Origin: Eledone cirrhosa
Lineage: Eukaryota
DNA length: 64,000 nt
Assembly (NCBI GenBank): GCA_964016885.1
Contig: OZ024743.1
Span: forward strand, 48,174,001-48,238,000
Direction of reading: 5' to 3'
In this document: one piece after another, positions 1 through 63,764 of the stretch
Numbering within the stretch: the stretch's first letter is position 1
Layout: every line of letters begins with the position of its first letter
Program-made: the position numbers and the translations under genes
The notes under the pieces: model-generated
Databases searched by the model: none
The model's input: the letters and a program-made list of their open reading frames with translations, nothing else
What the model was told of the DNA's origin: nothing

Positions 1-741
1 GCGTTCCTTTGTCAGTGTTGAACAAACGAGCAATGATGGTTGCTGGACACCATGGCTTAATACGGGATGTTTGTTTACAAACACACCGAGCATTATAATA
101 AATGTTCGGTGAATCCATACGTACATGTATATATGTGTGCGTGTATGTATATATATATACATACTACTGTACGTCTGTATACATATATGTATGTACGTGT
201 ACATACTTATATATATATATATTATTCAAAATATTAATAAATGGAGACATTCATGTAATCAAAATATGTTTTATTATATTTGATGGGCGTGAGCCCGAAA
301 TATTGGGATTAAATCTCTACTACGGTAACCCTTCTACCTTTGTTTTGTTTTCATCTTTGTCTCTCTCAATTTTCACTTTCACCTGTTTTTCCTATCTATA
401 TTTCACTTCCTACCTCGAGATTTCCCTTTGCGTTGTTGTGGCTTTCTTAAATACGTATTTTTACACATTTCACAATGCTTCAAGCAAACTTTAACACCGT
501 TTTATTATATATATTTTGGAGGTACTGTGGTGTTTTTTCAGTACGTCCTCATCAGATAAAATACATAAATTGATGTATGACAGACTGGAATTGGCAGACT
601 GGAATTGAACCATCAGCACAGTTGAGGTATGACCCTAGTCGCTATGATCTCATTTCTACAGCTGAGTAAACTGGTAAACTGGAGCAATGTGAAATAAAGT
701 GTTTTGCTCAAGGAAACAACACATCACTCGGTCTGAGAATT

Positions 742-12442: not shown

Positions 12443-12848
12443 CTCCTTCTCTTTGATTGTTTATCTGTCTGTTGGTCTGTCTGTCTATCTATTTATCTGT
12501 CTTTCTAACTATCCATTCATCCACCCATCTTTCTTTTCATTCACTTTCCTCACAAAGTTGATTTATTTGCTTTTTCTTTCTTCCTTTCTTTTGACCTTTC
12601 ACACACACACACACATACTCATCCTTACATAGATACGCATAGACACACACTCATTCTTATACACATACACATGCACTCGCACAGGCACACAAACATTCAT
12701 ACACACACTCTCACACTTTCCTAGCCACATATACACACAAACATTCATACACACACATGCACGCACACCAACCTAGTGTTTCGTTTGTTGAAAAGAAAAA
12801 TTCTTTTATTTTAAATTGGATCTACGTTTGTGGAAATATTTCCCTAGC

Positions 12849-13160
12849 ATGATGACACGACAGTTAGGTGCTGCTGAAGTACATACTTCTCCACGTAACA
12901 GTAAGGAGTCCCAAAATCGTCTGTTAATGACTAAAAATGACCAACAGTATGATATTACAGAATTTATTAGTCTCCACCCAGGAGGGGCTGAAATTCTTTA
13001 CAAACACCGCCACGAGGATCTTGGTCGGATAATGACTGCCTCAGAAAATGGTTACCACAAACATTCTCAAGCTGCCTTTCGGATACTGGAGAATTATAGG
13101 ATAGGAGATTACCTTCATAAGACTGACCAGTCGTCTTGTGAAAGGAATTCCATTGACCAG
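12849..13160 (+). CDS. FA2H: Fatty acid 2-hydroxylase, first visible coding exon (cytochrome b5 heme-binding domain)
   Basis: Translates MMTRQL...YDITEFISLHPGGAEIL...HKHSQAAFRILENYRIG, containing the cyt-b5 HPGG motif and the second heme His. Ends at CAG|GTAAGG, a phase-0 donor (312 nt from ATG 12849). The exact start codon is uncertain. Confidence 0.85.
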
Positions 13161-14016
13161 GTAAGGATCGTATTTTATTTCATATCTTTTACAGAGAAAA
13201 AAAAGGTTTCTAATTTAGGCACAAGGCCAGCAATTTTTGGAGGCAGGAGAAAGTCTATAAATTGACCCCAGTACTTTACTGGGACTTTATTTTATCAACC
13301 TCAAAGAAGAATGAAAGGCAAAGTTGACCTCGACAGTATTTGAAAATAAGGTGACTCAGACAATAAGAAAGGAATGTTTTGTTTTTAAACATCATTTCTT
13401 CATAGCTGTAGATCTGACACTGGCAGGATTTGAACTCAGTATGTAAAAACCTAGAAATGATATCACAGTGTATTTTGTCAACTCTCTAATGATTCTATTA
13501 ACCCGTTAGCGTTTACATTCCTCTATATTTACTATTGTATTTAATTATCTCACATAATATGGAATATATGAGATTTTGATATTATTTATTTTGAGAATAA
13601 TACCTTAAAGTTGGTATGAGTGGCCAGTTAAGGCTGGTTTGAACAGAAAGAGATGAGAGAGTTCTGGCCAGATATGGCTGGTTTAAATGTTAAAGGGTTA
13701 AGGTACAACATTTTCTAACATTAAAGCAGCCAACAATCAGGGAGAAAGGGGAAGTCAATAATATCACCACCAGTATTTAACTGGTACTTTATTTTATCAA
13801 ATCAATCCCAAAAGATGCAAGGCAAAGTTGACCTCGGCAGGATTCAAACACAGAACATAAAGGGATGTAACTAAATACCGCAAAGCATTTTGTTTAATGC
13901 TTTAACGATTCTGCCAACTCACCGCAGTATTAATAATAATAATTGTTTCTTTTATTTGCTAAAACATGAGGCCAGCAATTTATGAGGCCAGCAATTTATG
14001 AGGAATGAAACATTGA

Positions 14017-16612: not shown

Positions 16613-16682
<70 letters not shown>

Positions 16683-16686
<4 letters not shown>

Positions 16687-19600
16687 TCATCATCATCATC
16701 ATCATCGTTTAACGTCCGTGTTCCACGCTTGCATGGGTTTGGACGGGGGTTTTCCCACTTGAGGCAAGAGTGATTATCTTGCTCGCATAGGACTATCTGG
16801 CGGGTTTTTTACAGCTGGATGCCCTTCCTAACACCAACCACATTTACAGTGTGGGGCTGGGAGGTTTTTACCGTGTTGCCTACACGGCCACATTACAGCG
16901 TGAACTGTGTGTTTTTTTTGACGTGACACCTACACAATCTCATTTGTTTCGGCCTGGATGTTGCGGCACCAACATAACTTTACATTGAAAGGGGCGGTGT
17001 GGATGGGGTGGGGGTGGTGGGACGGGGGTGTATTTTGTTAGAGATGCCTACTGACTGTAGTAGGTTTTACTTTGTATTTAGGTAAGGCGGGTCTTCTCTA
17101 TTACTGAAGAGGTGTAAGTGTGTGAGGTCGGAATTTATCAGCTCGTCCCAAATTTTTCTGAGTCTGCCTATTCCGTGGCTACCGTCTATCTTTATTGACC
17201 TGCACTTTGTTATACAGCTATCGTCCTTCATGCGCATCACGTAACCATACCAACGTAGCCTTCTCTCGAGTAAACAACATCTGATCCCTCTTATTTCTAA
17301 TTTTTTCCTTAGTTCGTTTATGCTTTGCCGTTCACGTATATTACTATTACACATCCAGCGGAGCATGCAAGCTTCGTTTCTCTCTAGTCTGCGTATATCT
17401 TCTGCACACAATGCCAAGGTCTCACTGCCATGCAACATTGCTGTTCGTATGCAGGCATCGTACAACCTGCCTTTCATTTTTAGGGAGAACCCTTTAGCGG
17501 CTAATAGTGGTATAAGCTCTCTGAACTTTTTCCATCCAGTTCTGACTCTAGCTACTGTACTTTCAGAGCACCCTCCCCCACTGCTGATTTTGTCACCCAG
17601 GTAACGGAAGCTGTCCACTATTTCTATAGAACCTTCTGCGCAATTGAAAGAGCTAGTATTTTGTGGGTACTTGCTGCTACTTATTGCACCAGAGCACCGG
17701 CCACATGTAAAATCTATATTCTTAGTTAGCTTACCTGTGATCCCACTACATCTTTTATGCACCCATACTTTGCATTTGGGACATAAAATGGAGTTTCTAC
17801 CTACGCCTTTCCTACACATTGAGCATGGCCACTTCCTGGAAGGGACCGCTGCCTTATTTTCTTTCTTACAAACTAGAACTTTAGTCTTAGCCAGGTTAAT
17901 TTTAAGGCCTTTTGATTCTAGGCCGTGCTTCCATGTTTGGAATTTCTTCTCTAGCTCGGCCATTGATTCAGCTATGAGTGTTAGGTCATCTGCGTATAGA
18001 AGTTCTCATGGGCAACCGGTCTTGAACTCCTCTGTTATAGCCTGAAGGGCAATAATAAATAGTAGGGGGCTGAGAACAGAGCCCTGATGGACGCCAACTT
18101 TTACGCTAAACTCTTCACTATATTCGTTGTTAATTCTAACCTTGCTGACTGTTTCTTTATACATGGCTTGTATAGCTCTCACAAGCCATTCATCAACACC
18201 TAGTTTTCTAAGAGCCCACCAGATAATGGACCGGGGGACTCTGTCGAAGGCTTTCTCCAAGTCGAAAAAAGCTAAGTATAGGGGTTTACTTTTAGCTAGG
18301 TACTTCTCCTGTAGTTGTCGTACAATGAAAAGAGCGTCTGTGGTACTTTTTCCTGACACAAACCCGAACTGCATTTCATCTAGATCAATTCTCTCTCTGA
18401 TTAGTTGCACTATTACTTTTTCCGTGACCTTCATGACCTGGTCGATTAATTTAATGCCTCTATAGTTACTCCTATCTAGGGCATCTCCTTTACCCTTATA
18501 ACAGTTAACGATGCTGCTGCTACGCCAGTCCTTCGGAACAACCCCATTCTGTACGACTTGGTTAACTATCCGGGTGACCATGGTGTGTCCCACCGTACCA
18601 GATGCCTTCAGCATCTCGGCAACTAATTCCGAAGGCCCAGCCGCCTTACCCGTCTTCATATCTTTGATTGCCTTACTTATTATACTACCTTCAACTTGCA
18701 CTGCTGGTCCCTCTATTGGATCGATGTGGGGGAGACTGTCTTTCTCCCATTTATTCTCCTCATTTAGTAGCCTTTCATAGTGACACTTCCAAACTACCTT
18801 CTTATCAGCGTCAGTGATGGCAAGTACGCCGTCATCATTAAGTACACACTTCTCCCCGACAATATCATGGTTTTCCTTGACACATTGCCTAGCAATCCTG
18901 AACACCTCACGTTTTTGGTCCTCGCGTTGTAGAACATGCTTGAACTTTCTTTCCTCTGCTTCCCTTCTTGCGAAGTACACTTGTCTCCTAGCTTCCCTCC
19001 TGGCCACTTGATAGTCTTCTCTGCTTCCCCCATCCCGCCATACTTTCCAAGCCTGCTTTTTGGCCTTAATTGACCCCTCCACCTTACTGTTCCACCACCA
19101 TGTTACTCTCCTCCTGCCTACAGGCCTGCTCCAGCCACAGACTTCGTCTGCCGCCATCAGCAGGTTTGCTTTCAGGAATTCCCACTGCTCCTCTATATTG
19201 TACGACTCTAATTGCTCTTCCTTACTGTCGAAAGCATCAAATAGTATACTTTTGAATTTATTTCTGGCTGTGGGGTCCTTTAGCTTCCATATTTTTCTCC
19301 TGAGGATAGTCCTCTTCTGTTGTCTAGTACGTCTCATCCTGACTATTAGGTCGCTAATTATCAGTCTATGTTGGGAGGTGCATTCTTCATGGGGGAGGGA
19401 TTTAGTGTTTACAACAGACACTCTGTCACGTCTTCTGGTAAGGATATAATCTACCTGGCTTGTGTGTTCCCCCGATCTATAGGTGATCAGGTGATTGTCA
19501 CGTTTTTTGAAGTTAGTGTTACAGATAGTTAGGTTATTTGCGTCACAGAATTCCAGGATTCTGGAGCCTTCCTTATTTCTAGTACCAAACCCATAGCCTC

Positions 19601-20642
19601 CATGGATTTCGCCGTAGCCGTCACAATGTTGTTCAACGTGACCATTTAGGTCGCCTGCAATCATTATATAGTCACTGTCGGTTATTTGGGAGGTAGTGAG
19701 CATCAGTGTCTCATAGAATCTGTCTTTTATAGTGCCGGGCAGTCCGGATTGGGGTGCGTACGCAGATATTACTGTCACCGTCGTTCTACTGAGGACAAGT
19801 CTTATTTTAATTATTCTGTCGTTCACTCTATTTACGTCTATTATCTTATCTGCCCACTTTTCTGCTACCATGATTCCTACTCCACCCAGCCCATTGTCAT
19901 TTCCCACCCAGAAAAGCTTATAGCATCGTTTTTTACCCACAATGAATCTAGCAGACCCACCCCTCCACCTGGTCTCTTGAATACAACAAACATCGACCTC
20001 CTTACGTTCAAGCATTTCTACAACCTCGTTAGAGCGACCCTTTAAGGTGCCTACATTCATGATACCAACTCTGAAGTTTTGGATTGCGTTTGGAGGGTGG
20101 GAGCGGGGGGAGATGGGGTTATGTTAGCCATCCGCGGCCGAAACAAAGAGGAATGCTCGCTTTCTCGTCCACGAGGTGAATTTGTCTTTATCTTTGGCAT
20201 TGTCGCTGAGCGTCCAGATTTTTCTCTCTTCAACTCTCCGGAATTCCGTAGTCCTTCTATCCGTCATATCGAAGGCGACCAGGTAAGCGATAGTATAGGC
20301 CTCTGGCTTATGATTGGTCCACGTAATAATAATGGTGGTGCGTGGGGGCGGGAGGGAGGGGTGCTGAGTTGTTAGCGAGAAGAATAGGTTTAGGTTTAAG
20401 TAAGATCCTCGTATTTAACAAGCGATAACAAAAATACAAGATTTGTTTAGTAAAATACGACAAAAACTTCGTATTTAACAAGCAATAACAAAAAATACAA
20501 GATTTGTTTTGGAAAATACGAGAAAATACACAGCATACAGGAGGATTTGTTTTGGAAATAGGATAGAATAGCTAGTAGTGAAGCAAGAATTTGAATCTGA
20601 GGATAGAAAATACGAGAAAATACACAGAATACAGGAGGATTT

Positions 20643-20645
<3 letters not shown>
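16683..20645 (-). mobile_element. Near full-length RTE-clade LINE (APE endonuclease + RT with internal PHD-type finger), inactivated
   Basis: ORFs 20060-18006 and 17963-17067 are one frame split by a TGG>TGA stop. Motifs: NVGTL/QETRW/YAPQ/GDLNGH/SQVDY/SQH (APE) and DLEKAFD/GVHQGSVLSP/YADD (RT). Has a (GAT)n tail, repetitive 5' leader and (TA)n on both flanks, plus a 38-bp deletion near the C-terminus relative to other copies. Confidence 0.95.
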
Positions 20646-20680
<35 letters not shown>

Positions 20681-20733
20681 GTAAGTATGTATGTATACGT
20701 ACATACATATATGTATACAGACGTACAGTAGCA

Positions 20734-20797
<64 letters not shown>

Positions 20798-20946
20798 CAG
20801 GCACACATATATATATGTACGTATCAGTTTAGCGAACATTTATTATAATGTTCGCTTTGTTCGTTTGTAAACAAACGGACAGACTGATTTATGCCGTACG
20901 GTGTTAAGGCAACCACGTCACCTTTTTGTTCAACACTGACACAGGA

Positions 20947-20989
20947 ACGATGTACTAGTTTCAAGCTTGTTAGCTATCGTCAGCACCGT
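20947..20989 (-). ncRNA. Minimal type I hammerhead ribozyme motif
   Basis: Minus strand: ACGGUG CUGACGA U-AGCU-AACA-AGCU-U GAAAC UA GUA^ CAUCGU, with a 6-bp stem I, 4-bp stem II and palindromic stem III ACUAGU. Confidence 0.75.
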
Positions 20990-21084
20990 ATACCCTTCTG
21001 CCAGATGGTTGAACGTTCGAAAGTATATACTTTCCTTATGAAAATTAACGGCTGAGCAGCCTAATTTGCATATCGAGTGAGTTC

Positions 21085-21136
<52 letters not shown>

Positions 21137-23300: not shown

Positions 23301-25567
23301 CTAACAACTATATATATATATATATATATCATCATCATCATCATCACCGTTTAATGTCTATTTTCCAAGCTAGCATGGATTAGACAAGTTGCTCTGTTGC
23401 GAGGACAAACTAGATCCAATGACTATGACTTGCTCATATAGAACTGATTTTGGTTTGAATTCTACAGCTGGATGCCCTTCCTAATGCTAACCACATTGGT
23501 TAGCATTAGGAAGGGCGCTTTTTGTCATGTCACCTACATGACCACCTTTCATTGTGGTCTGCGCATTTTTTGTTTTGTTGTGACACCTACATGACTGCTT
23601 TACAGTGTGGGCTGGGGACTTTTTATTGTATGACCACTTTACAGTGAACTGGGAACTTGGGTGGAGGGATTGGGGAGCTAGATCTAGAGGCATGTGCGAG
23701 GGGGTGGGGTATTCAGGTGCAGGTGGAGGTGTACGAGGAGGAGGGACGTGAATGGGAGAGGGGCAAGGTAGTGCATACAAGATGTATGCTTCAACCCATG
23801 CACATGGGAAGGTGAGTCTTCTGTATTATTGCAATAAGCCAGAGATCTTGATCCTGTGTCATCGTCTTCATGAGGGGCAATTGTGCAAGGCCAACTTTTA
23901 TCACCTCACCCCAAGTCTTTCTACACTGCAGTTTCCATCAACCTTGAGCCCTCCTGCACATAAAAATATATATATAAAAATATATATATAAACAGAGAGA
24001 GAGAGAGGGGGGGGGAGAGTTACCATAAATGGCAGACCAATGGACTGAATATATATTACAGTATTTAGATTTTACATTTTGAGTTCAAGTCCCACACAGG
24101 TTAACCTTTGCCTTGCATCATTTCAGGCATTGATAAAAAATAAGGTTCCAGTAACGATGGTATACAGAGTGATGATGTAGCTCTAATTTTAAGTTTTCAG
24201 TGGGTTTATAGCATTGAACCCCTTCCCTCCTTCCATACCTCAGCCTTACTGACCTTAGCATGCTCCCAGTTCCCAAAATACATTTTCACCACTGCAAACC
24301 CACCATTGACTGCAGATCAATTCATTTAACTAGAACCATCTGCTAGAAATGTGGCAACATGCCAAAGAAACAATAGATTCTAAAGATTGTCAGATTGTCA
24401 CACACGTTTAATATAGATTTATAACGTTGGCAGAATATAATTTCCTAATTTTGGAAGAAGACCACAAATTATTTTTTTTTTTATGTCTTAGAAGAGATAA
24501 GGCAGAGTCTAGCTCTTTTCAGGGAATTTGCAACTTTGAACTTGTTTTACTATCTAGTGTTAAATTCTTTATATTTCATACATATTTTCTTATGATAAAG
24601 AAGCTAAGATATATATTGCAATACAATATTTCCTCAAGTCTAATTTTTTATGCCAACCAGTGTACACTCTAGTATATTTACTTTATGTTTCTCCCATTAT
24701 TACTTTGGCAAGTACAGTAAAGTTAATGCGTTGCTGATGATGTCATAATAGGACTGAAACATGTCCAGAGTTAGATTACCTTTGATTAGAACTTTTTATG
24801 ATCAAGGTCAATTCAAGTGTATCCAAGACAACATTATTTAATGTGTGCTTTCATTGGGGACAGTATAAAAGCAAATTACAGGGGGAAATAATAAGCAAGA
24901 CGCAGTGTGGAATTTATATTATTATTAATAAACAGGGCAGTTAACTTTGACTTTCATCCTTACAGGGTCGATAAAATAACGTACCGTCCCGCACTGGGAT
25001 TGATTTAATCCACTTTCTCTTCCTCCAAATTGCTGGCCTTGGGCCTATATAAGAAACCATTATTAAAGGCGGGATTGGCAATATCGGTAGAGAGTCGAAC
25101 GCCATGCTTTGACGCATAGTTACGGCCCTTGCCATTCTGAGTTCAAATCCCGCCGAGGTTAACTTTGCCTTTCATCCTTACGGGGTCGATAAAATAAAGT
25201 ACCAGTAATGCACTCGGTAATTGCTGGCCTTGTGTCTAAAAGTAGAAACAATTATTACTTTGTCATGCAGTATAGATGGAAAATACATTGGAGTATTTAG
25301 TCATCTGTCAAGTCACAAGGACCTCAGACAGATAATAATTCTCTTAAAACGTATGCAGTGCCTAGCAGGGCTGATCTTTGTATGACATCAGTCTTGCATG
25401 GTATTCCTAAATACTTTAAGAAGTCTTGAAGTTTCAATGAGATTGACTCTAATGCCCAAATCACAACAGGTATCATTTTCACATTACCCTCTCGCATTCC
25501 AAACAGTGTACCCTCTCCATTTTCAATTCAAAGTACTTGTGGATTTTTTCAACCTTTTTACTCACAA

Positions 25568-35715: not shown

Positions 35716-35755
35716 ATATATACATACATACATACATACATATATACATACATAT

Positions 35756-37825
35756 ATGGTGGCTGCCAACTCGTTTTCGAGTACGGCCACTACTTTATAT
35801 CCATGTAGGAGAACTCCTACCGATGCGCTGAACGAGTGTGACTTTTTAGTCCAGCCAGCGACTTGAAAACTCTGGTACTAACACTACACTTGTGACAATT
35901 ATTGACACATAATGCTGGACCCATGGTACCATGTGACGACAAGTGCAGAGAGATCTCCAGATATAAAGCAATGCCTGTGTCATGAAGCTTTTATAATGAG
36001 CAAAGGCACTGCACAAAGCCAGTCCCACTCTCTTAACCAAGATGATATTTACCAAAAAGAAGAACAAGTCAACATCATTGGATACCATCAGGGTTGCAGG
36101 TGTTATATCAGAGTTTTCCTTCTCCTAGAATTCTGCCTTGACAAAAGCTAAGGGGTCATCTCTCCCGGTGATTTTGGATGGCCATTGACTCTTAAGAGCT
36201 CCTTTGGCCTTTGACATACATATATACATACATGGTGGCTGCCAACTCGTTTTCGAGTATGGCCACTACTTTATATCCATGTAGGAGAACCTCTACCGAT
36301 ATGCTGAACGAGTGTGACTTTTTAGTCCAGCCAGCGACTTGAAAACTCTGGTACAAACACTACACTTGTGACAATTATTGACACATAGTGCTGGGCCCAT
36401 GGTAACATGTGACGACAAGTGCAGAGAGATCTCCAGATATAAAGCAATGCCTGTGCCGTGAAGCTTTTATAGTGAGCAAAGGCACTGCACAAAGCCAGTC
36501 CCACTCTCTTAACCAAGATGATATTTACCAAAAAGAAGAACAAGTCAACATCATTGGATACCATCAGGGTTGCAGGTGTTATATCAGAGTTTTCCTTCTC
36601 CTAGAATTCTGCCTTGACAAAGGCTAAGGGGTCATTTCTCCCGGTGATTTTGGATGGCCATTAACTCTTAAGAGCTCCTTTGCCCTTTGACAGGTTTTGT
36701 TTTTAGTCCTGCAGGATGTCCAAAGTCACCCTCCTCACCAAGAAACCTTGGTGGGGTTGCCAGTTTAGTCGCCAACGACCCGACCATGAGACAGGTTGTA
36801 CTGGGATACATGTTACCAGTAGCACCAACTGGTGACCTGACAAAACTCGTGACCATACATACATACATGGTGGCTGCCAACTCGTTTTCGAGTACGGCCA
36901 CTACTTTATATCCATGTAGGAAAACCCCTAACGAGCGTGACTTTTTAGTCCAGCCAGCGACTTGAAAACTCTGGCATAAACACTACACCTGTGACAACTA
37001 TTGACACATAGTGCTGGGCCCATGGTACCATGTGACGACAAGTGGAGAGAGATCTCCAGATACAAAGCAATGCCTGTGCCGTGAACATATATATATACAT
37101 ACATACATACACATATACATACATACATCCACATATACATACATACATACATATATAGATACACATATACACACATACATACATACATACATACATACAT
37201 ACATGGTGGCTGCCAACTCATTTTCGAGTACGGCCCCTACTTTATATCCATGTAGGAGAACCCCTACCGATGCGCTGAACGAGTGTGATTTTTTAGTCCA
37301 GCCAGCGACTTGAAAACTCTGGTACAAACACTACACTTGTGACAATTATTGACACATAGTGCTGGGCCCATGGTACCATGTGACGACAAGTGCAGAGAGA
37401 TCTCCAGATATAAAGCAATGCCTGTGCCGTGAAGCTTTTATAGTGAGCAAAGGCACTGCACAAAGCCAGTCCCACTCTCTTAACCAAGATGATATTTACC
37501 AAAAAGAAGAACAAGTCAACATCATTGGATACCATCAGGGTTGCAGGTGTTATATCAGAGTTTTCCTTCTCCTAGAATTCTGCCTTGACAAAGGCTAAGG
37601 GGTCATTTCTCCCGGTGATTTTGGATGGCCATTGACTCTTAAGAGCTCCTTTGCCCTTTGACAGGTTTTGTTTTTAGTCCTGCAGGATGTCCAAAGTCAC
37701 CCTCCTCACCAAGAAACCTTGGTGGGGTTGCCAGTTTAGTCGCCAACGACCCGACCATGAGACAGGTTGTACTGGGATACATGTTACCAGTAGCACCAAC
37801 TGGTGACCTGACACAACTCGTGACC
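35756..37825 (-). mobile_element. Tandem array of four copies of a ~625-bp non-autonomous RTE-derived element separated by (TACA)n; further copies at 41943-42503 and diverged 37861-38160
   Basis: Copies at 35756-36213, 36231-36854, 36866-37086 and 37202-37825 all share the left (3') end next to the microsatellite and are variably truncated at the right (5') end. They contain an RTE 5'-UTR-like CTAGGAGAAGGAAAACTCTG motif. Confidence 0.8.
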
Positions 37826-38809: not shown

Positions 38810-39038
38810 ATGTAATAACAAAAATACCAAAACAAACAGCACAGTACATGGAAGAAATATATTAGTTTAATGCTTGAAATACCAGGAAGAGAGTCTTAAC
38901 GTTTCGGACACTAGTCCTTCATCAGAAGATAGAGCTAGAAATAGAATATAAATAGAAAGTAAAGAGTGATGAGAGGAAGGAACAGGGAAATGTGAAAAAA
39001 ATTGGGGATAAAAAAACATACACATGTGTATTCAGTCG

Positions 39039-41248: not shown

Positions 41249-41935
41249 AATAACAATAATTATAATAATAACAACAATAATAATATACATATATATATAT
41301 ATATACACACACACACACGCACACACATAAACATATCTATACACACACACACACACACACGATAGCAACTAACAGCGCTGTGATCGAATGTGGCTTTTTA
41401 GCCCAGCCAATGATCTAAAATGTCTTGCACAGAGTCGGCAACCAAAACATTCACTGGGAATAGCCGGCCATGGTTGGAGTTCATGTACTATTGCATGTCG
41501 CTTGAGCCCTCCTGCTGATTTACATTCTCTACCACATGTTTGGCAAGCATGATGAGTAGCATCTCCAACAGTAGCCTGGTAGTCAATCATGGTCTTACTT
41601 TATGACTGCGAAGATGACTTTCGAGTCCAGCTTTGCTTAGGCAGAGTCTCGCATAGATGCTGCATGTCAGCACCATAGAAGGACCCTCGCCGTCTGGAAG
41701 TGCAACAGCAATGCCCTTCCTCACATCCCGCCTTACTTTCTCGTATGCGATTTGAGATGCCTCAAAGGCAACTTTTCCCTCATATACAGTCTTTCTCCAT
41801 TTATTACGATCAGCAGCAATATTTTCCCATGTATCAGCAGAGATGTTAGCGTCTTTCAAAGAGGCTTTCAAGGAATCCTTATACCCCTTTTTTGGTTTAT
41901 GTGGCGGTCGTTTTCCTTTAACTAACTCTCCATAC
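41105..41935 (-). mobile_element. 3' end of an RTE (BovB-like) LINE with three C-terminal C2H2-like fingers; 3' UTR interrupted by microsatellites
   Basis: YGEL..GKR....PKK.YKDSLK...WE..A.DR.KWR, then C..YARLCLSKAGLESHLRSH, CQTCGRECKSAGGLKRHAIVH and CRLCARHFRSLAGLKSHIRS; tail ...GGCAGCCATC(ATGT)n at ~41105. Confidence 0.8.
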
Positions 41936-42705
41936 ATACATACATGGTGGCTGCCAACTCGTTTTCGAGTACGGCCACTACTTTATATCCATGTAGGAGA
42001 ACCCCTACTGATGCGCTGAACAAGTGTGACTTTTTAGTCCAGCCAGCGACATGAAATCTCTGGTACAAACACTACACTTGTGACAATTATTGACACACAG
42101 TGCTGGGCCCATGGTACCATGTGATGACAAGTGCAGAGAGATCTCCAGATACAAAGCAATGCCTGTGCCGTGAAGTTTTTATAGTGAGCAAAGGCACTGC
42201 ACAAAGCCAGTCCCACTCTCTTAACCAAGATGATATTTACCAAAAAGAAGAACAAGTCAACATCATTGGATACCATCAGAGTTGCAGGTGTTATATCAGA
42301 GTTTTCCTTCTCCTAGAATTCTGCCTTGACAAAGGCTAAGGGGTCATCTCTCCCGGTGATTTTGGATGGCCATTGACTCTTAAGAGTTCCTTTGCCCTTT
42401 GACAGGTTTTGTTTTTAGTCCTGCAGGATGTCCAAAGTCACCTTCCTGGGGTTGCCAGTTTAGTCGCCAACGACCCGACCATGAGACAGGTTGTACTGGG
42501 ATACATATATACATTATTTACTGAGAAATTGATATTTATCTTTTCTCCGAGATCAGTCAAGTTAATTAAACCAACCCACAAAGGTATAAGATATAATAGA
42601 AAGATTTTCACCGTCTATCTTAACATCCCTGAATAACATACAAAACACATTAATAAAATCATCTACAAGGTTTTAGAAAATTTGTTCTGTATATATATAT
42701 ATATA

Positions 42706-43719: not shown

Positions 43720-43762
<43 letters not shown>

Positions 43763-43825
43763 TGCAGTAATATATATATATATACCACAACCCACCCACT
43801 CCTGTCAACATAGCACATCCAGCCC

Positions 43826-44604
43826 ACACTGTAAAGTGTTCATGTAGGAGTCATGACAAAAAGCACCCAGCCCACACTGTAAAGTGGTCATGTAAGAGTC
43901 ACAACAAAAAGCACCCAGCACTCACTGTAAAGTGGTCATGTAGGAGTCACGACAAAAAGCACCCAGCCCACACTGTAAAGTGGTCATGTAGGAATCACAG
44001 CAAAAAGCACCCAGCACTCACTGTAAAGTGGTCATGTAGGAGTTACGACAAAAAGCACCCAGCCCACACTGTAAAGTGGTCATGTAGGAGTCACGACAAA
44101 AAGCACCCATCCCACACTGTAAAGTGGTCATGTAGGAGTCACGACAAAAAGCACCCATCCCACACTGTAAAGTGGTCATGTAGGAGTCATGACAAAAAGC
44201 ACCCAGCACTCACTGTAAAGTGGTCATGTAGGACTCACGACAAAAAGCACCCATCCCACACTGTAAAGTGGTCATGTAGGAGTCATGACAAAAAGCACCC
44301 ATCCCACACTGTAAAGTGGTCATGTAGGAGTCACGACAAAAAGCACCCATCCCACACTGTAAAGTGGTCATGTAGGAGTCATGACAAAAAGCACCCAGCA
44401 CTCACTGTAAAGTGGTCATGTAGGACTCACGACAAAAAGCACCCAGCCCACACTGTAAAGTGGTCATGTAGGAGTCATGACAAAAAGCACCCAGCACTCA
44501 CTGTAAAGTGATCATGTAGGACTCACGACAAAAAGCACCCATCCCACACTGTAAAGTGGTCATGTAGGAGTCACAGCAAAAAGCACCCAGCACTCACAGT
44601 AAAT
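43826..44604 (+). repeat. 48-bp minisatellite (~16 copies) inside an RTE-type 3' UTR that ends at ~44766
   Basis: Unit CACTGTAAAGTGGTCATGTAGGAGTCACGACAAAAAGCACCCAGCCCA, followed by GGTTGGCGTTAGGAAGGGCATCC and a (GAT)n tail. Confidence 0.95.
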
Positions 44605-45044
44605 GTGGTTGGCGTTAGGAAGGGCATCCAGCCATAGAAATCTACCCAGAAACAGTTCTATATGAGCAATGAGCAAGACATGGTCACCTGACCCAACTTG
44701 CCTCTAATGGGACAACCTGTCTAACCCATGCTAGCATGGAAAATGGATGTTAAACGATGATGATGATATATATATATATATACATACATATATATTTATG
44801 TGTGTGTTAGCACGTGTATGTGTGTGTTAGCATATGTGTGTGTGTCTTAGCATGTGTATGTGTATGTTAGCATGTGTATGTGTGTGTTAGCATATGTATG
44901 TGTGTGTTAGCATGTGTATGTGTGTATGTATACATGACAATTATCAATCACTCAATGAAACCTTTTTGTTTAGAATAAATGAGCCCTGAAATGTGTGGCC
45001 ATTCATGTGTGTGTGTGTGTGTACATGAGTGTGTATGTATGTAT

Positions 45045-46560: not shown

Positions 46561-46804
46561 GTCCTATTTATATATATATATAGTAATAATAATAAATTTG
46601 AAGACTAAAATCCAAAGAGGGCTCGATAAGGATAAATATATATCAAATATATAAGAACCGTAGAGCAAATATTTATTAAAATAACAGATTAAAGTTTAAG
46701 CAAAGAATCGCTGCTTTCAGAAGATCCCGTTAAGGGTGAAAGTAGCAATTCTTTGCTTAAACTTTAATCTGTTATTTTAATAAATATATATATATATATA
46801 TATA

Positions 46805-48492
46805 TCATCATCATCATCATCATCAACGTTTAACGTCCGTGTTCCACGCTTGCATGGGTTTGGACGGGGGTAGTCCCACTTGAGGCAAGAGTGATTGTCT
46901 TGCTCGCATAGGACTGTCTGGCAGGTTTTCTACAGTTGGATGCCCTTCCTAACACCAACCACATTTACAGTGTGGGTCTGGGAGGTTTTTACCGTGTTGC
47001 CTACACGGCCACATTACAGCGTGGACTGTGTGTTTTTTTGTCGTGACACCTACACGATCTCATTTGTTTCGGCCTCGATGGCGCGGCACCAACATAACTT
47101 TACATAGAACGGGGTGGTGTGGATCGGGTGGGGGTGGTGGTGGTGGGACGGGGTTTACTATATATTTAGGTAAGGCGGGTCTTCTCTGTTACTGAGTACC
47201 GCCAAAGGTCTCGGTCCAGTGACATTGTCTTGGAGAGGTGTAAGTGTGTGATGTCGGAGTTTATCAGCTCGTCCCAGGTTTTTCTAGGTCTGCCTATTCC
47301 GTGACTACCGTCTATCTTTATTGCCCTGCACTTTGTTATACAGCTATCGACTTTCATGCGCATCACGTGTCCATACCAACGTAGCCTTCTCTCGAGTAAA
47401 CAACATCTGATCCCTCTTATCTCTAATTTTTTCCTTAGTTCGTTTATGCTTTGCCGTTCACGTATATTACTGTTACACATCCAGCGGAGCATGCAAGCTT
47501 CGTTCCTCTCTAGTCTGCGTATATCCTCTGCACACAATGCCCAGGTCTCACTGCCATGCAGCATTGCTGTTCGTATGCAGGCATCGTACAACCTGCCTTT
47601 CATTTTTAGTGAGAACCCTTTAGCAGCTAATAGTGGTATAAGCTCTCTGAACTTTTTCCAACCAGTTCTGACTCTAGCTACAGTACTTTCAGAGCACCCT
47701 CCCCCACTGCTGATTTTATCGCCCAGGTAACGGAAGCTGTCCACTATTTCTATAGAACCCTCTGCGCAATTGAAGGAGCTAGTAGTTTGTGGGCACTTGC
47801 TGCTACTTATTGCACCAGAGCACCGGCCACATGTAAAATCTATGTTCTTAGTTAGCTTACCTGTGATCCCACTACATCTTTTATGCACCCATACTTTGCA
47901 TTTAGGACATAAAATGGAGTTTCTACCTACGCCTTTCCTACACACCGAGCACGACCATTTCCCAGAAGGGACCGCCGCCTTGTTTTCTTTCCTACAAACT
48001 AGTACTTTGGTCTTAGCCAGGTTAATTTTAAGTCCTTTTGACTCTAGGCCGTGCTTCCATGTTTGGAATTTCTTCTCTAGCTCGGCCATTGATTCCGCTA
48101 TGAGTGTCAGGTCGTCTGCGTATAGGAGTTCCCATGGGCAGCCTGTCTTGAACTCCTCTGTTATAGCCTGAAGGGCAATAATAAATAGTAGTGGACTGAG
48201 AACAGAGCCCTGATGGACGCCAACTTTTACGCTAAACTCTTCACTATATTCGTTGTTAATTCTAACCTTGCTGACTGTTTCTTTATACATGGCTTGTATA
48301 GCCCTCACAAGCCATTCGTCAACGCCTAGTTTTCTAAGAGCCCACCAGATAATGGAGCGGGGGACTCTGTCGAAGGCTTTCTCCAAGTCGACAAAAGCTA
48401 AGTAGAGGGGTTTACCTTTAGCTAGGTACTTCTCCTGTAGTTGTCGTACTATGAAAAGAGCGTCTGTGGTACTTTTGCCTGACACAAACCCG
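46805..48492 (-). mobile_element. 5'-truncated copy of the same RTE family with an uninterrupted 439-aa RT/C-terminal frame
   Basis: ORF 48485-47166 is near-identical to the 17-20 kb element, with intact GCPWELLYADD, the same 3' UTR and a (GAT)n tail. Confidence 0.95.
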
Positions 48493-48570
48493 AGTAATAA
48501 TTATAAATTTGAAGACTAAAATCCAAAGAGGGCTCGATAAGGATAAATATATATAAAATATATAAGAATA

Positions 48571-49123
48571 TAAGTATGTATACGTACATACATATATGTA
48601 TACAGACGTACAGTAGTATGTATATATATATACATACATGCACACATATATATATGTACGTATGGATTCACCAAACATTTATTATAATGCTCGGTGTGTT
48701 TGTAAACAAACATCCCGTATTAAGCCGTAGTGGCTAGCAACCACCGTTGCTCGTTTGTTCAACACTGACAAAGGAACGCTGTACTAGTTTCAAGCTTGTT
48801 AGCTATCGTCAGCAACGTATTCCTGCCAGATAGTTGAACATCCGAAAGTATATACTTTCCTTATGCATATTAACGGCTGAGTAGCCCAATTTGCATATCG
48901 AGTGGGTTAATCGGCCGGGTGCACTGAAAACGATAAACGGAAAAAATGAAACGAAATTTCATTTCCCACTCTTAGTACGGCTGTTACTTAAATATAAGTA
49001 TGTATACGTTCATACATATATGTATACAGACGTACAGTAGTATGTATATATATATATACATACATGCACACGTATATATATATATGTACGTATGGATTCA
49101 CCAAACATTTATTATAATGCTCG
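48571..49123 (-). mobile_element. Hammerhead-bearing ~425-bp non-coding repeat, ~1.3 units in tandem; other copies at 20677-21087(-) and 1-210(+, ribozyme just outside the window)
   Basis: 48571-48693 is repeated at 48995-49123; 1-210 is the reverse complement of ~48571-48779. Confidence 0.7.
48776..48818 (-). ncRNA. Minimal type I hammerhead ribozyme motif (second copy)
   Basis: Minus strand: ACGUUG CUGACGA U-AGCU-AACA-AGCU-U GAAAC UA GUA^ CAGCGU. Core identical to the 20947 copy; the stem I wobble pair is flipped. Confidence 0.75.
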
Positions 49124-49731
49124 ATATATATATAATCATTTCATCATTTCATTTTACGACCACTTTTCCCTGCTTGCAAGGGTGGGACGGGAACTGATTC
49201 TGGCTTGATTTATACAGCTGGATGCCCTTCCTAACACCAACCTCATTTACAGTGATGGGTGTTACTGGGTGCTTTTTTGCCATGGCACCTCCACGACCAC
49301 TCTGCAGTGGAATGATAGGGACCTCAGTCCCTATCATCTCATTTCTACAGCTGAGTAAACTGGAGCAATGTGAAATAAAGTGTCTTGCTCAAGGAAACAA
49401 TACATCACCCGGTCTCTGAGAATTGAACTCACAACCTTTTGATTGCAAGGCCAATGCTCTAACCACTAAGCCATGTGCCTCCATATATATGGAGGCACAT
49501 GGCTTAGTGGTTAGAGCATTGCCTTGTAGGTGCCACGGCAAAAAAGCACCCAGCACTCACTGAAAATGAGGTTGGTGTTAGGAAGGGCATCCAGCTGTAG
49601 AAATCAAGCCAGAATCAGTTCCCGTCCCACTCTTGCAAGCAGGGAAAAGCGGATGTAAAATGAAATGTATGTATGTATGTAAGTAGGTATGTATGTATGT
49701 ATGTATGTATGTATGTGTGTGTGTGTATGTG

Positions 49732-60196: not shown

Positions 60197-61685
60197 ATCA
60201 TCATCATCACCGTTTTACGTCCGTTCTTCCACGCTAGCATGGGTTAGACAGGTTGTCCTGTTGTGGGCAGTGTCTGGTCGGCTGACCATGCCTTGCTCAT
60301 ACAGGAACTGATTTGGCTTGATTTCTACAGCTGGATGCCCTTCCTAACACCAACCTCATTTACAGTGAGTGCTGGGTGCTTTTTCGTGGCGCCTACACGT
60401 CCACTTTACAGTGTGGGCTGGGTGCTTTTTTTCCGTGGCACCTCCACGACCAACTTGCGGTGGGGGGTGTGGGGGCATATTGTCTATATGCTTCAGCTTG
60501 TACCCATGGGAGGTCAGGTACTCTGTATTACTGTGTGACGCCAGAAGTCACGGTCGTGTGTCATTGCCTTTGAGAGGTGTAATTGGGTAAGGTCGGCTTT
60601 TATCACCTCATCCCAGGTCATCTTGGGTCTCCCCACTCCGCGGTTTCCAACAACTTCTAGTGCTCTGCACCTTTTTATGCAGCTGTCATCCTTCATACGC
60701 ATCACATGTCCATACCAGCGCAACCCCTCTCCTGCACACAGCATTTGATTCCTCTTATGCTCAGTCTCTCTCTCAATTCATTTATGCTTTGTTGTTCACG
60801 TATATTACTGTTACACATCCATCGGAGCATGCAGGCTTCATTTCTCTCTAATCTACGTAAGTCTTCTACCTTCAACGCCCAGGTCTCACTACCATGCAAC
60901 ATTGCTGTTCGGATACAAGCATCATACAGTCTGCCTTTCATTCTGAGGGAGAAGCCTTTTGCAGCTAGCAGTGGTAGTAGTTCCCTAAACTTCTTCCATC
61001 CCGTTCTTACCCTAGTTATTGTACTTTCTGAACACCCATCTCCACTGCTAATTCGGTCACCTAGGTAGCAGAAGCTGTCTACTGTTTCTACAGAGCCCTC
61101 CCAGAGATTGGTGGTACTTGTTTCCTGTGGCTGTTTGCTGCTTGCTGTCCCAGCACAGCTGCTGCATGTGAAGCCTACATTCTTAATTAAGCTTCCTGAG
61201 ATCCCGCTACATCTCTTGTGTACCCATTGTTTGCATTTGGGGCAGAGAATGGAGTTCCTACCTACACCTTTCCTACATACTGAGCAAGGCCATTTCCCTG
61301 AGGGGATCTGGGTTCTGTTTTCTCGTCTACTTACAAGGACCTTAGTCTTTGTCATGTTGACTTTGAGACCCTTTCTTTCTAGTCCCTGCTTCCAAGTTTG
61401 GAATTTATTCTCTAGTTCTACCATAGATTCAGCTATGAGTGCGAGGTCATCAGCATACAGGAGTTCCCATGGGCATCCGGTCTTAAACTCCTCCGTTATT
61501 GCCTGCAGGACTATGATGAACAGGAGGGGACTAAGAACAGAGCCCTGATGGACCCCAACCTGTACGCTAAATTCCTCGCTATACTCATTGCTAATCCTAA
61601 CTTTGCTGACTGCTCCCCTATACATGGCTTGTACCGCTTTCACAAGCCATTCATCTACTCCTAGTTTTCTAAGAGCCCACCAAGT
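60197..61685 (-). mobile_element. 5'-truncated RTE LINE, diverged subfamily with PHD-type finger
   Basis: ORFs 61643-60702 and 60744-60514 (frameshift); GVHQGSVLSP, YADD and the C4HC3 motif are present; (GAT)n tail. Confidence 0.9.
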
Positions 61686-62356: not shown

Positions 62357-63405
62357 TCATCATCATCATCATCAACGTTTAACGTCCGATGGGGTGGGGC
62401 TGGTGGGACGGGGATGTATTTTGTTAGAGATGCCTACTGACTGTAGTAGGTTTTACTATGTATTTAGGTAAGGCGGGTCTTCTCTATTACTGAGTACCGC
62501 CAAAGGTCTCGGTCCAGTGACATTGTCTTGGAGAGGTGTAAGTGTGTGAGGTCGGAGTTTATCAGCTCGTCCCAGGTTTTTCTAGGTCTGCCTATTCCGT
62601 GGCTACCGTCTATCTTTATTGCCCTGCACTTTGTTATACAGCTATCGACTTTCATGAGCATCACGTGTCCATACCAACGTAGCCTTCTCTCGAGTAAACA
62701 ACATCTGATCCCTCTTATTTCTAATTTTTTCCTTAGTTCGTTTATGTTTTGCCGTTCACGTATATTACTATTACACATCCAGCGGAGCATGCAAGCTTCA
62801 TTCCTCTCTAGTCTGCGCATATTCTCTGCACACAATGCCCAGGTCTCACTGCCATGCAACATTGCTGTTCGTATGCAGGCATCATACAACCTGCCTTTCA
62901 TTTTTAGGGAGAACCCTTTAGCGGCTAATAGTGGTATAAGCTCTCTGAACTTTTTCCATCCAGTTCTGACTCTAGCTACTGTACTTTCAGAGCACCCTCC
63001 CCCACTGCTGATTTTGTCACCCAGGTAACGGAAGCTGTCCCCTATTTCTATAGAGCCCTCTGCGCAGTTGAAAGAGCTAGTATTTGTGGGCACTTGCTGC
63101 TACTTATTGCACCAGAGCACCGGCCACATGTGAAATCTATGTTCTTAGTTAGCTTACCTGTGATCCCACTACATCTTTTATGCACCCATACTTTGCATTT
63201 GGGACACAAAATGGAGTTTCTACCTACGCCTTTCCTACACACTGAGCATGGCCACTTCCCGGAAGGGACCGCCGCCTTATTTTCTTTCCTACAAACTAGA
63301 ACTTTGGTCTTAGCCAGGTTAATTTTAAGGCCTTTTGATTCTAGGCCATGCTTCCATGTTTGGAATTTCTTCTCTAGCTCGGCCATTGATTCAGCTATGA
63401 GTGTT
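62357..63405 (-). mobile_element. 5'-truncated RTE LINE copy with a 1-bp frameshift and internally deleted 3' UTR
   Basis: ORFs 63386-63048 and 63093-62464 are near-identical to the 47166-48485 protein. Confidence 0.9.
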
Positions 63406-63764
63406 ATATATATATATCATCATCATCATCATCATTTCATTTTACGTCCGCTTTTCTTTGCTTGCACGGGTGGGACGGGAACTGATTCTGGCTTGATTTC
63501 TACAGCTGGATGCCCTTCCTAACACCAACCTCATTTACAGTGAGTGCTGGGTGCTTTTTTGCCGTGGCACCTCCACAACCACTTTGCAATGGAATGATAT
63601 GGACCCCAGTCCCTATCATCTCATTTCTACAGCTGAGTAAACTGGAGCAATGTGAGATAAAGTGTCTTGCTCAAGGAAACAACACATCACCCGGTCTGAG
63701 AATTGAACTCACAACCTTTCGATTGCAAGACCATGCTCTATCTATGTATGTATGTATGTATGTA

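Follow-up and report, generated by a model that had tools for sequence, protein, structure and literature searches.

The 64-kb window, by which we mean the whole stretch of DNA analysed here, contains three insertions of a non-coding repeat, and BLAST and nhmmer searches of the locus gave no further ones. This agrees with the original prediction, which had described three occurrences of a unit of about 425 bp, the last of them about 1.3 units in tandem, although it made no mention of the opposite orientation of copy 1. The insertions and their parts are as follows:

1-213, plus strand: copy 1, the 3' half of the unit, ending in (TA)n and in the opposite orientation to copies 2 and 3
20677-21087, minus strand: copy 2, 5'-truncated, about 81% identical to copy 3, with (TA)n on both sides
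48567-49123, minus strand: copy 3, 557/424 = 1.31 units with one hammerhead, in TA-rich flanks
48991-49123, minus strand: upstream partial unit of copy 3, the 3' 133 bp of the unit, preceding the full unit
48567-48990, minus strand: full unit of copy 3, 424 bp, 37.5% GC
48567-48663, minus strand: long TA-rich hairpin, the shared 3' end of all three copies

Copy 1 is cut by the window edge 2 nt after the predicted cleavage site, with the hammerhead core outside the window, and at the variable stem I partner described below it agrees with copy 3. The central (TA)n of the 3'-end hairpin is expanded in copy 2. Rfam matches to microRNAs at 48543-48682 and 48984-49140 were set aside, as they correspond to this TA hairpin and score far below the gathering scores. 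Read as a circle, the unit has no ATG-started open reading frame longer than 49 aa in the sense and 53 aa in the antisense direction, and it is without LTR, PBS or PPT (PBS and PPT judged by eye). Its size, GC content below 50%, type I hammerhead and non-coding nature are those of animal non-LTR retrozymes. The two versions of the repeated part within copy 3 are one substitution and two microsatellite indels apart, whereas copies 1 and 3 differ over that part by four internal substitutions; since the partial and full parts of copy 3 are closer to each other than copies 1 and 3 are, a single insertion event would fit. The tandem arrangement in the window amounts to one end-to-start junction with one ribozyme, and there is no two-ribozyme copy among the three insertions.

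The text of the minus-strand hammerhead, its 6-bp stem I, its ACUAGU palindrome, its U·U and the position of its cut site are as the original prediction described them, and can be laid out in full:

48776-48818, minus strand: type I hammerhead of copy 3, from the sequence and a motif descriptor
48818-48813 with 48781-48776, minus strand: stem I, 6 bp
48812-48806, minus strand: core C3-A9, CUGACGA
48805 (U10.1) and 48792 (U11.1), minus strand: U·U at the base of stem II
48804-48801 with 48796-48793, minus strand: stem II, 4 bp, loop AACA
48791-48788, minus strand: G12-A15.1, GAAA
48788-48783, minus strand: stem III, palindrome ACUAGU
48782/48781, minus strand: predicted cut after A17 (GUA)
48754-48840, minus strand: predicted extension of stem I, 48840-48821 with 48775-48754 after a bulge of 2-3 nt
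20989-20947, minus strand: hammerhead of copy 2, from the sequence and the motif descriptor

A CUGANGA core, GAAA and an NUH site are thus arranged on three helices, open at helix I, as in type I hammerheads; the G10.1-C11.1 pair is absent, with U·U in its place in copies 2 and 3. The motif is beyond chance: a type I descriptor, composed post hoc after the motif had been seen, finds three sites in the window (at 48812, at 20983 and, unrelated, at 38925), and each of 30 block-shuffled windows came out empty. Rfam gave no match to the hammerhead at gathering score, and at E<=10 none of its 67 matches is a hammerhead or overlaps the motif. Judged from its sequence, the motif is an intact type I hammerhead, for which self-cutting is predicted.

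The original prediction went astray in calling this ribozyme minimal and in treating the U·U as a defect. In the available part of PMC4209133, in minimal hammerheads helix II is long, with a G10.1-C11.1 pair and an unpaired 5' base, helix I is short and helix III short or missing, and canonical metazoan type I ribozymes have a helix I of 6 bp, a helix II of 4 bp and a palindromic helix III of 1-2 bp. The features of the minimal Penelope-like element (PLE) hammerhead are absent here, where helix II has only 4 bp with U·U and helix I has 6 bp with an extension, and the helix sizes, as read from the sequence, are those of the canonical metazoan type I ribozyme and not of the minimal PLE motif. 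As for the mismatch, HHR_Amex2, the ribozyme of an axolotl retrozyme, has U·U at the base of helix II yet cleaves: the monomer reaches 22% in 1 h, and the dimer does far better (PMC7229834, available text). By analogy with this active ribozyme, the G10.1-C11.1 pair is usual but would not be required. Our hammerhead resembles Amex2, as described, in the mismatch and in a two-pair helix III; Amex2 has a tetraloop there, whereas here the two pairs enclose only UA, so that a dimer is probably needed more strictly than in Amex2. The hammerheads of PLE pseudo-LTRs (pLTRs) likewise have a palindromic stem III. By our own reading of Fig. S3 of PMC4209133, in which the GAAA column is detached in the text, the PLE-linked Hydra and D. 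willistoni rows have U...U around stem II and the Adineta row has the same ACUAGU stem III.

The window also contains an unrelated hammerhead of the minimal PLE type (38932-38892, minus strand), with an extra A before a G-C stem II and the palindrome AACGUU, which fits the minimal type better than the hammerhead of the 424-bp unit does. Its single occurrence in the window is in a short segment rich in pyrimidines and bounded by (TA)n runs, probably the end of a 5'-truncated PLE. Outside the window, a pattern scan of metagenomes for our motif returned seven loci, none homologous to the window and five of them chance matches. Two metagenome contigs, 86% identical to each other and unrelated to the window (L004:229-265, minus strand, and L007:1065-1101, plus strand), have a hammerhead-like core, U...U, ACUAGU and a possible stem I, with no clear stem II.

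Is the ribozyme maintained? Copies 2 and 3, for all their divergence, have an identical hammerhead core, and all 32 of the counted pairs are kept in both. The original prediction set an identical core against diverged flanks, and this holds when both flanks are taken together (2 of 43 hammerhead positions differ against 34 of 207 flanking ones, p=0.03) but not against the upstream flank alone (9 of 90, p=0.25). Both hammerhead differences fall on a single stem I pair, which reads U·G in one copy and G·U in the other; this swap, which had been put forward as covariation, is present, but the word was too strong for two sequences, where 130 of 500 shuffles score as high and the signal is not significant.

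Variation among further copies was taken from public contigs of four runs (X1, X4, X5 and X6), aligned to the stretch at 80% likeness. At least 39 variable positions are listed among 40 of 55 rows, of which four lie in the hammerhead, at N7, in loop 2 and at the two members of the one stem I pair. A strict chance estimate for such a placement, made post hoc, is 0.4%. By number of variable positions, the hammerhead varies no less than the remainder (4/43 against 35/298 in the same 40 of 55 rows, p=0.8). One X5 contig, from another organism, carries both changes of the stem I pair, and a cluster of 39 loose ends has A at the 5' partner, which would pair with the U form, although the two are unphased. 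In X1 one of the two stem I changes accounts for 52% of the depth and the other for 27%, so that a mismatch at the variable pair may exist in some copies. Taken together, the sequence evidence for selection on the ribozyme is moderate.

In both ribozyme-bearing copies the extension adds about 17 predicted pairs to stem I (z of -4.4 for copy 3 and -2.5 for copy 2), and the extended stem is predicted to hold both ends of a cleaved monomer together. Folded as a circle, the unit reaches -138.8 kcal/mol with 70% of its nucleotides paired (z -8.9, and -4.9 without the TA part), and the antisense circle -120.6. Pair probabilities of the hammerhead within the circle are 0.50-0.76 for stem I and 0.86-0.96 for stem II; the modelled circle is thus predicted to be highly self-paired with the ribozyme free to fold. 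In energies that leave out the tertiary contacts of the core, closing stem III within a monomer costs 5.4 kcal/mol, the active dimer has -19.4 kcal/mol against -13.4 for two open monomers, and the minimum of the two-ribozyme cofold is an inactive duplex at -24.3 kcal/mol. On this modelling, the hammerhead probably needs a dimer to cleave.

The 3' end of the three window copies lies at one and the same point of the unit, next to (TA)n, and the two visible 5' ends differ from each other while both abut TA; no target-site duplication beyond TA is discernible at the window copies. Some of the stretch occurs in 20 runs from 16 studies, with half or more of it in 3 of the 20 rows (one sample). None of those listed is an RNA run, which carries no information on expression, and runs with small word shares were left out of the alignments. 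In X1, 8,775 contigs align to the unit, 1,820 of them at least 99% alike, which is not a copy number, and 18, 1 and 4 contigs align in X4, X5 and X6, respectively. With three insertions in 64 kb in addition to the X1 contigs, the unit is present in many copies, and on these sequences the family is large and partly young. The largest loose-end cluster listed for X1 (60 contigs, agreement 0.69) has (TA)n joined at 48933. This second (TA)n end, absent from the window copies, lies 58 nt past the window 3' end in circular order and so marks off one further feature:

48933-48990, minus strand: tail-like segment of 58 nt, from the window 3' end to the second (TA)n-joined end

X1 also contains two opposite-strand joints, 48708/48996 and 48820/48940, in one contig each and in none of the window copies; both are head-to-head relative to the ribozyme strand, with the 3' ends outward. 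An opposite-strand joint in X6 was set aside together with its flanks as a likely ligation artefact, its junctions carrying GATC and one flank matching another window repeat at a GATC site. PLE insertions are described as partial tandems with an inverted 5'-truncated copy, a tail of 30-40 bp and a bias for (TA)n (PMC8557442, available part). Partial tandem, fixed 3' end, 5' truncation and microsatellite target are all present in our repeat, and the head-to-head joints and the second (TA)n end of the X1 contigs may correspond to the published inverted copy and tail.

A scan of 58 of the 197 window ORFs gave no GIY-YIG or PLE open reading frame, and the reverse transcriptases among the scanned ORFs belong to LINEs. 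One APE-type LINE family (16650-20650 and 46780-48493, both minus strand; 60573-61682; 62388-63406) encodes an endonuclease, a reverse transcriptase and, directly after the RT domain, a PHD finger, and has a (GAT)n tail in (TA)n. A 48-bp tandem array of about 17 copies at 43720-44630 resembles, by eye, part of the LINE 3' UTR. At 35738-37484 and 41926-42225 lies a young repeat, about 480 bp long and partially tandem, whose copies are 94-97% identical and which has no hammerhead core by pattern search. A further hammerhead-like motif, at 24728-24775 (plus strand), has the palindrome ACAUGU and likewise U·U at the base of its stem II; its stem I resembles that of the unit with one mismatch, its flanks are unrelated, it folds poorly (z -1.6) and it has no Rfam match. 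It is possibly an old sister family. Directly after the (TA)n end of copy 1, between 270 and 600, two degenerate hammerhead-like motifs (about 283, plus strand, and about 555, minus strand) look like a PLE remnant. A cytochrome b5-like heme-binding domain at 12792-13262 (plus strand; Pfam E 1e-8) is probably a host exon.

We regard it as probable, with some confidence, that the 424-bp repeat with its type I hammerhead is a non-autonomous animal non-LTR retrozyme, mobilised by PLEs into TA microsatellites. The original prediction of a retrozyme or Penelope-parasite repeat, whose type I hammerhead probably acts as a dimer, is in this respect supported at the level of sequence. On the same grounds the repeat is likely to be a new family of the known animal retrozyme kind, and it is probably mobilised by Penelope-type enzymes. 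In the cycle that we propose, multimeric transcripts from tandem copies elsewhere would be cut at 48782/48781, best as dimers through ACUAGU, and the extended stem I would hold the 5'-OH and cyclic-phosphate ends for ligation. A Penelope-type RT/endonuclease would then nick (TA)n and prime in the TA-rich part of the RNA, and the RT would read across the ribozyme site and on beyond the point where it had begun. Such a course would give copies like copy 3, of more than one unit, with one ribozyme and with ends far from the cut; with its single ribozyme, copy 3 itself would be unable to release a monomer.

Both ends of copy 3 are about 215 nt away from the cut site, which the copy crosses once. 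Since copy 3 spans the cut site and ends so far away from it, a linear cleaved monomer would not have been its template, which leaves a ligated circle or a multimer that had stayed uncleaved. Between these we lean slightly towards a circular RNA template, which the predicted fold favours over the multimer: a closed paired ring, with the ribozyme free and with the extended stem I keeping the monomer ends together. It is possible, though we advance it only tentatively, that the insertions are the DNA footprints of a Penelope-type RT travelling round a 424-nt ribozyme circle, with the U·U ribozyme tuned to cut in multimers only. Travel of the RT round a circle would cover the copies of more than a unit, the one ribozyme, the ends far from the cut and the head-to-head arms, and the two fixed 3' ends 58 nt apart would then record a staggered endonuclease cut or a priming offset.

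The insertion marks are shared with PLEs themselves, and the unit might be the pseudo-LTR (3' end) of an autonomous PLE, present as 5'-truncated insertions and without an independent small-RNA cycle; copy 3 would then have arisen by internal deletion or template switching. Hammerheads are present in PLE pLTRs, which also produce such partial tandems, inversions, tails and TA bias (PMC4209133 and PMC8557442, in the parts available), the Hydra, D. willistoni and Adineta rows described above point the same way, and the 185 loose ends beyond those listed could include ORF-bearing upstream sequence. We nevertheless consider this improbable, given that copy 3 joins unit end to unit start without an ORF, that listed contigs of all four runs reach the far side of the end-to-start junction, albeit by about 10 letters, below the 31-letter bridging rule, and that the unit folds as a closed paired ring and has ribozyme helices of canonical size.

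Less probable again is that the ribozyme is a passenger without a current role, in a repeat spread from uncleaved linear multimers or by Helitron-type DNA rolling-circle. The weak stem III, the U·U mismatch, the inactive cofold minimum and the count of variable positions in the hammerhead all suit this explanation. Helitron-type elements, moreover, also form partial tandems in AT-rich sites. Against it, the listed variants stay clear of the core and of stem II, and target-primed reverse transcription would account for head-to-head inversions and for 5' ends that vary while the 3' ends are fixed. Nor do the repeat ends indicate a DNA transposon, the identity that the original prediction had set against its own reading: terminal inverted repeats are absent from them (4-6 of 20 matches), as are, in the printed ends compared by eye, the TC...CTRR termini that mark Helitrons. 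The passenger explanation can also draw on the Xenopus retrozyme dimers, most of which stayed uncleaved in vitro (1 of 9 cleaved; bioRxiv 10.64898/2026.07.22.740005, available part). We think it very unlikely that the unit is a SINE-like partner of the neighbouring APE-type LINE, moved by the LINE or serving as its 5' processing ribozyme. Both ribozyme-bearing copies do have a member of this LINE family directly 3' of them in the same orientation: for copy 2 it is full-length, and for copy 3 it is 5'-truncated and 73 bp away. The unit and the LINE, however, share no 3' end, the LINE ending in (GAT)n; the unit is absent from the 40 best rows of a BLAST search with the LINE region; the LINE copies at 60573-61682 and 62388-63406 have no such neighbour; and the adjacency is explained by both families sitting in (TA)n.

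A PLE-mobilised retrozyme would have close counterparts. The metazoan non-LTR retrozymes of coral, mussel and axolotl, with units of 150-450 bp (350-390 in the mussel), are likewise small and non-coding, with GC below 50% and a type I hammerhead, and likewise have a highly paired predicted circle with a free ribozyme and no LTR, PBS or PPT (PMC7229834, available text). RtcB is reported to circularise metazoan retrozymes in vitro. Against their tandem arrays and expressed circles, the copies seen here are dispersed monomers or of 1.3 units. Vertebrate retrozymes are likewise genome-dispersed monomers (Li, Clavereau, Pollet, bioRxiv 10.64898/2026.07.22.740005); an active locus in that preprint, as far as its available text describes, has two or more ribozyme-bearing units, and the window copies would count as 'monomers'. 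PLE insertions are likewise partial tandems with (TA)n targets, and their inverted 5'-truncated copy and tail may have counterparts in the X1 contigs (PMC8557442, available part), whereas here there is no ORF, the helix sizes are canonical and the tail-like segment is 58 nt and not 30-40. Neither octopus nor cephalopod occurs in the main text of PMC7229834, and no mollusc is in the sample of the 2026 preprint as given in its available part. The literature searched contained no cephalopod retrozymes, although the supplements of PMC7229834 and of the preprint could list a cephalopod or U·U family.

A specialist would expect such a family rather than be surprised by it, and its interest lies in what it may add to the link between retrozymes and PLEs. 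Vertebrate non-LTR retrozymes have been proposed as non-autonomous PLE derivatives on the evidence of co-occurrence and pLTR phylogeny, and not of insertion-end structure, in the available part of the work (bioRxiv 10.64898/2026.07.22.740005). With the link so far drawn from co-occurrence and pLTR similarity, insertion ends that bear Penelope-type marks would be more direct evidence. The hammerhead variant, being invisible to Rfam, also implies that Rfam hammerhead counts, such as the 235 hammerhead-1 matches counted in the giant squid genome paper (available part), would understate the hammerhead load. Should a Penelope-type RT indeed run round the ribozyme circle, the repeat would offer a protein-free substrate for the unresolved Penelope mechanism that makes pseudo-LTRs and tails, and the family may serve as a small substrate on which circle-templated reverse transcription can be tested.
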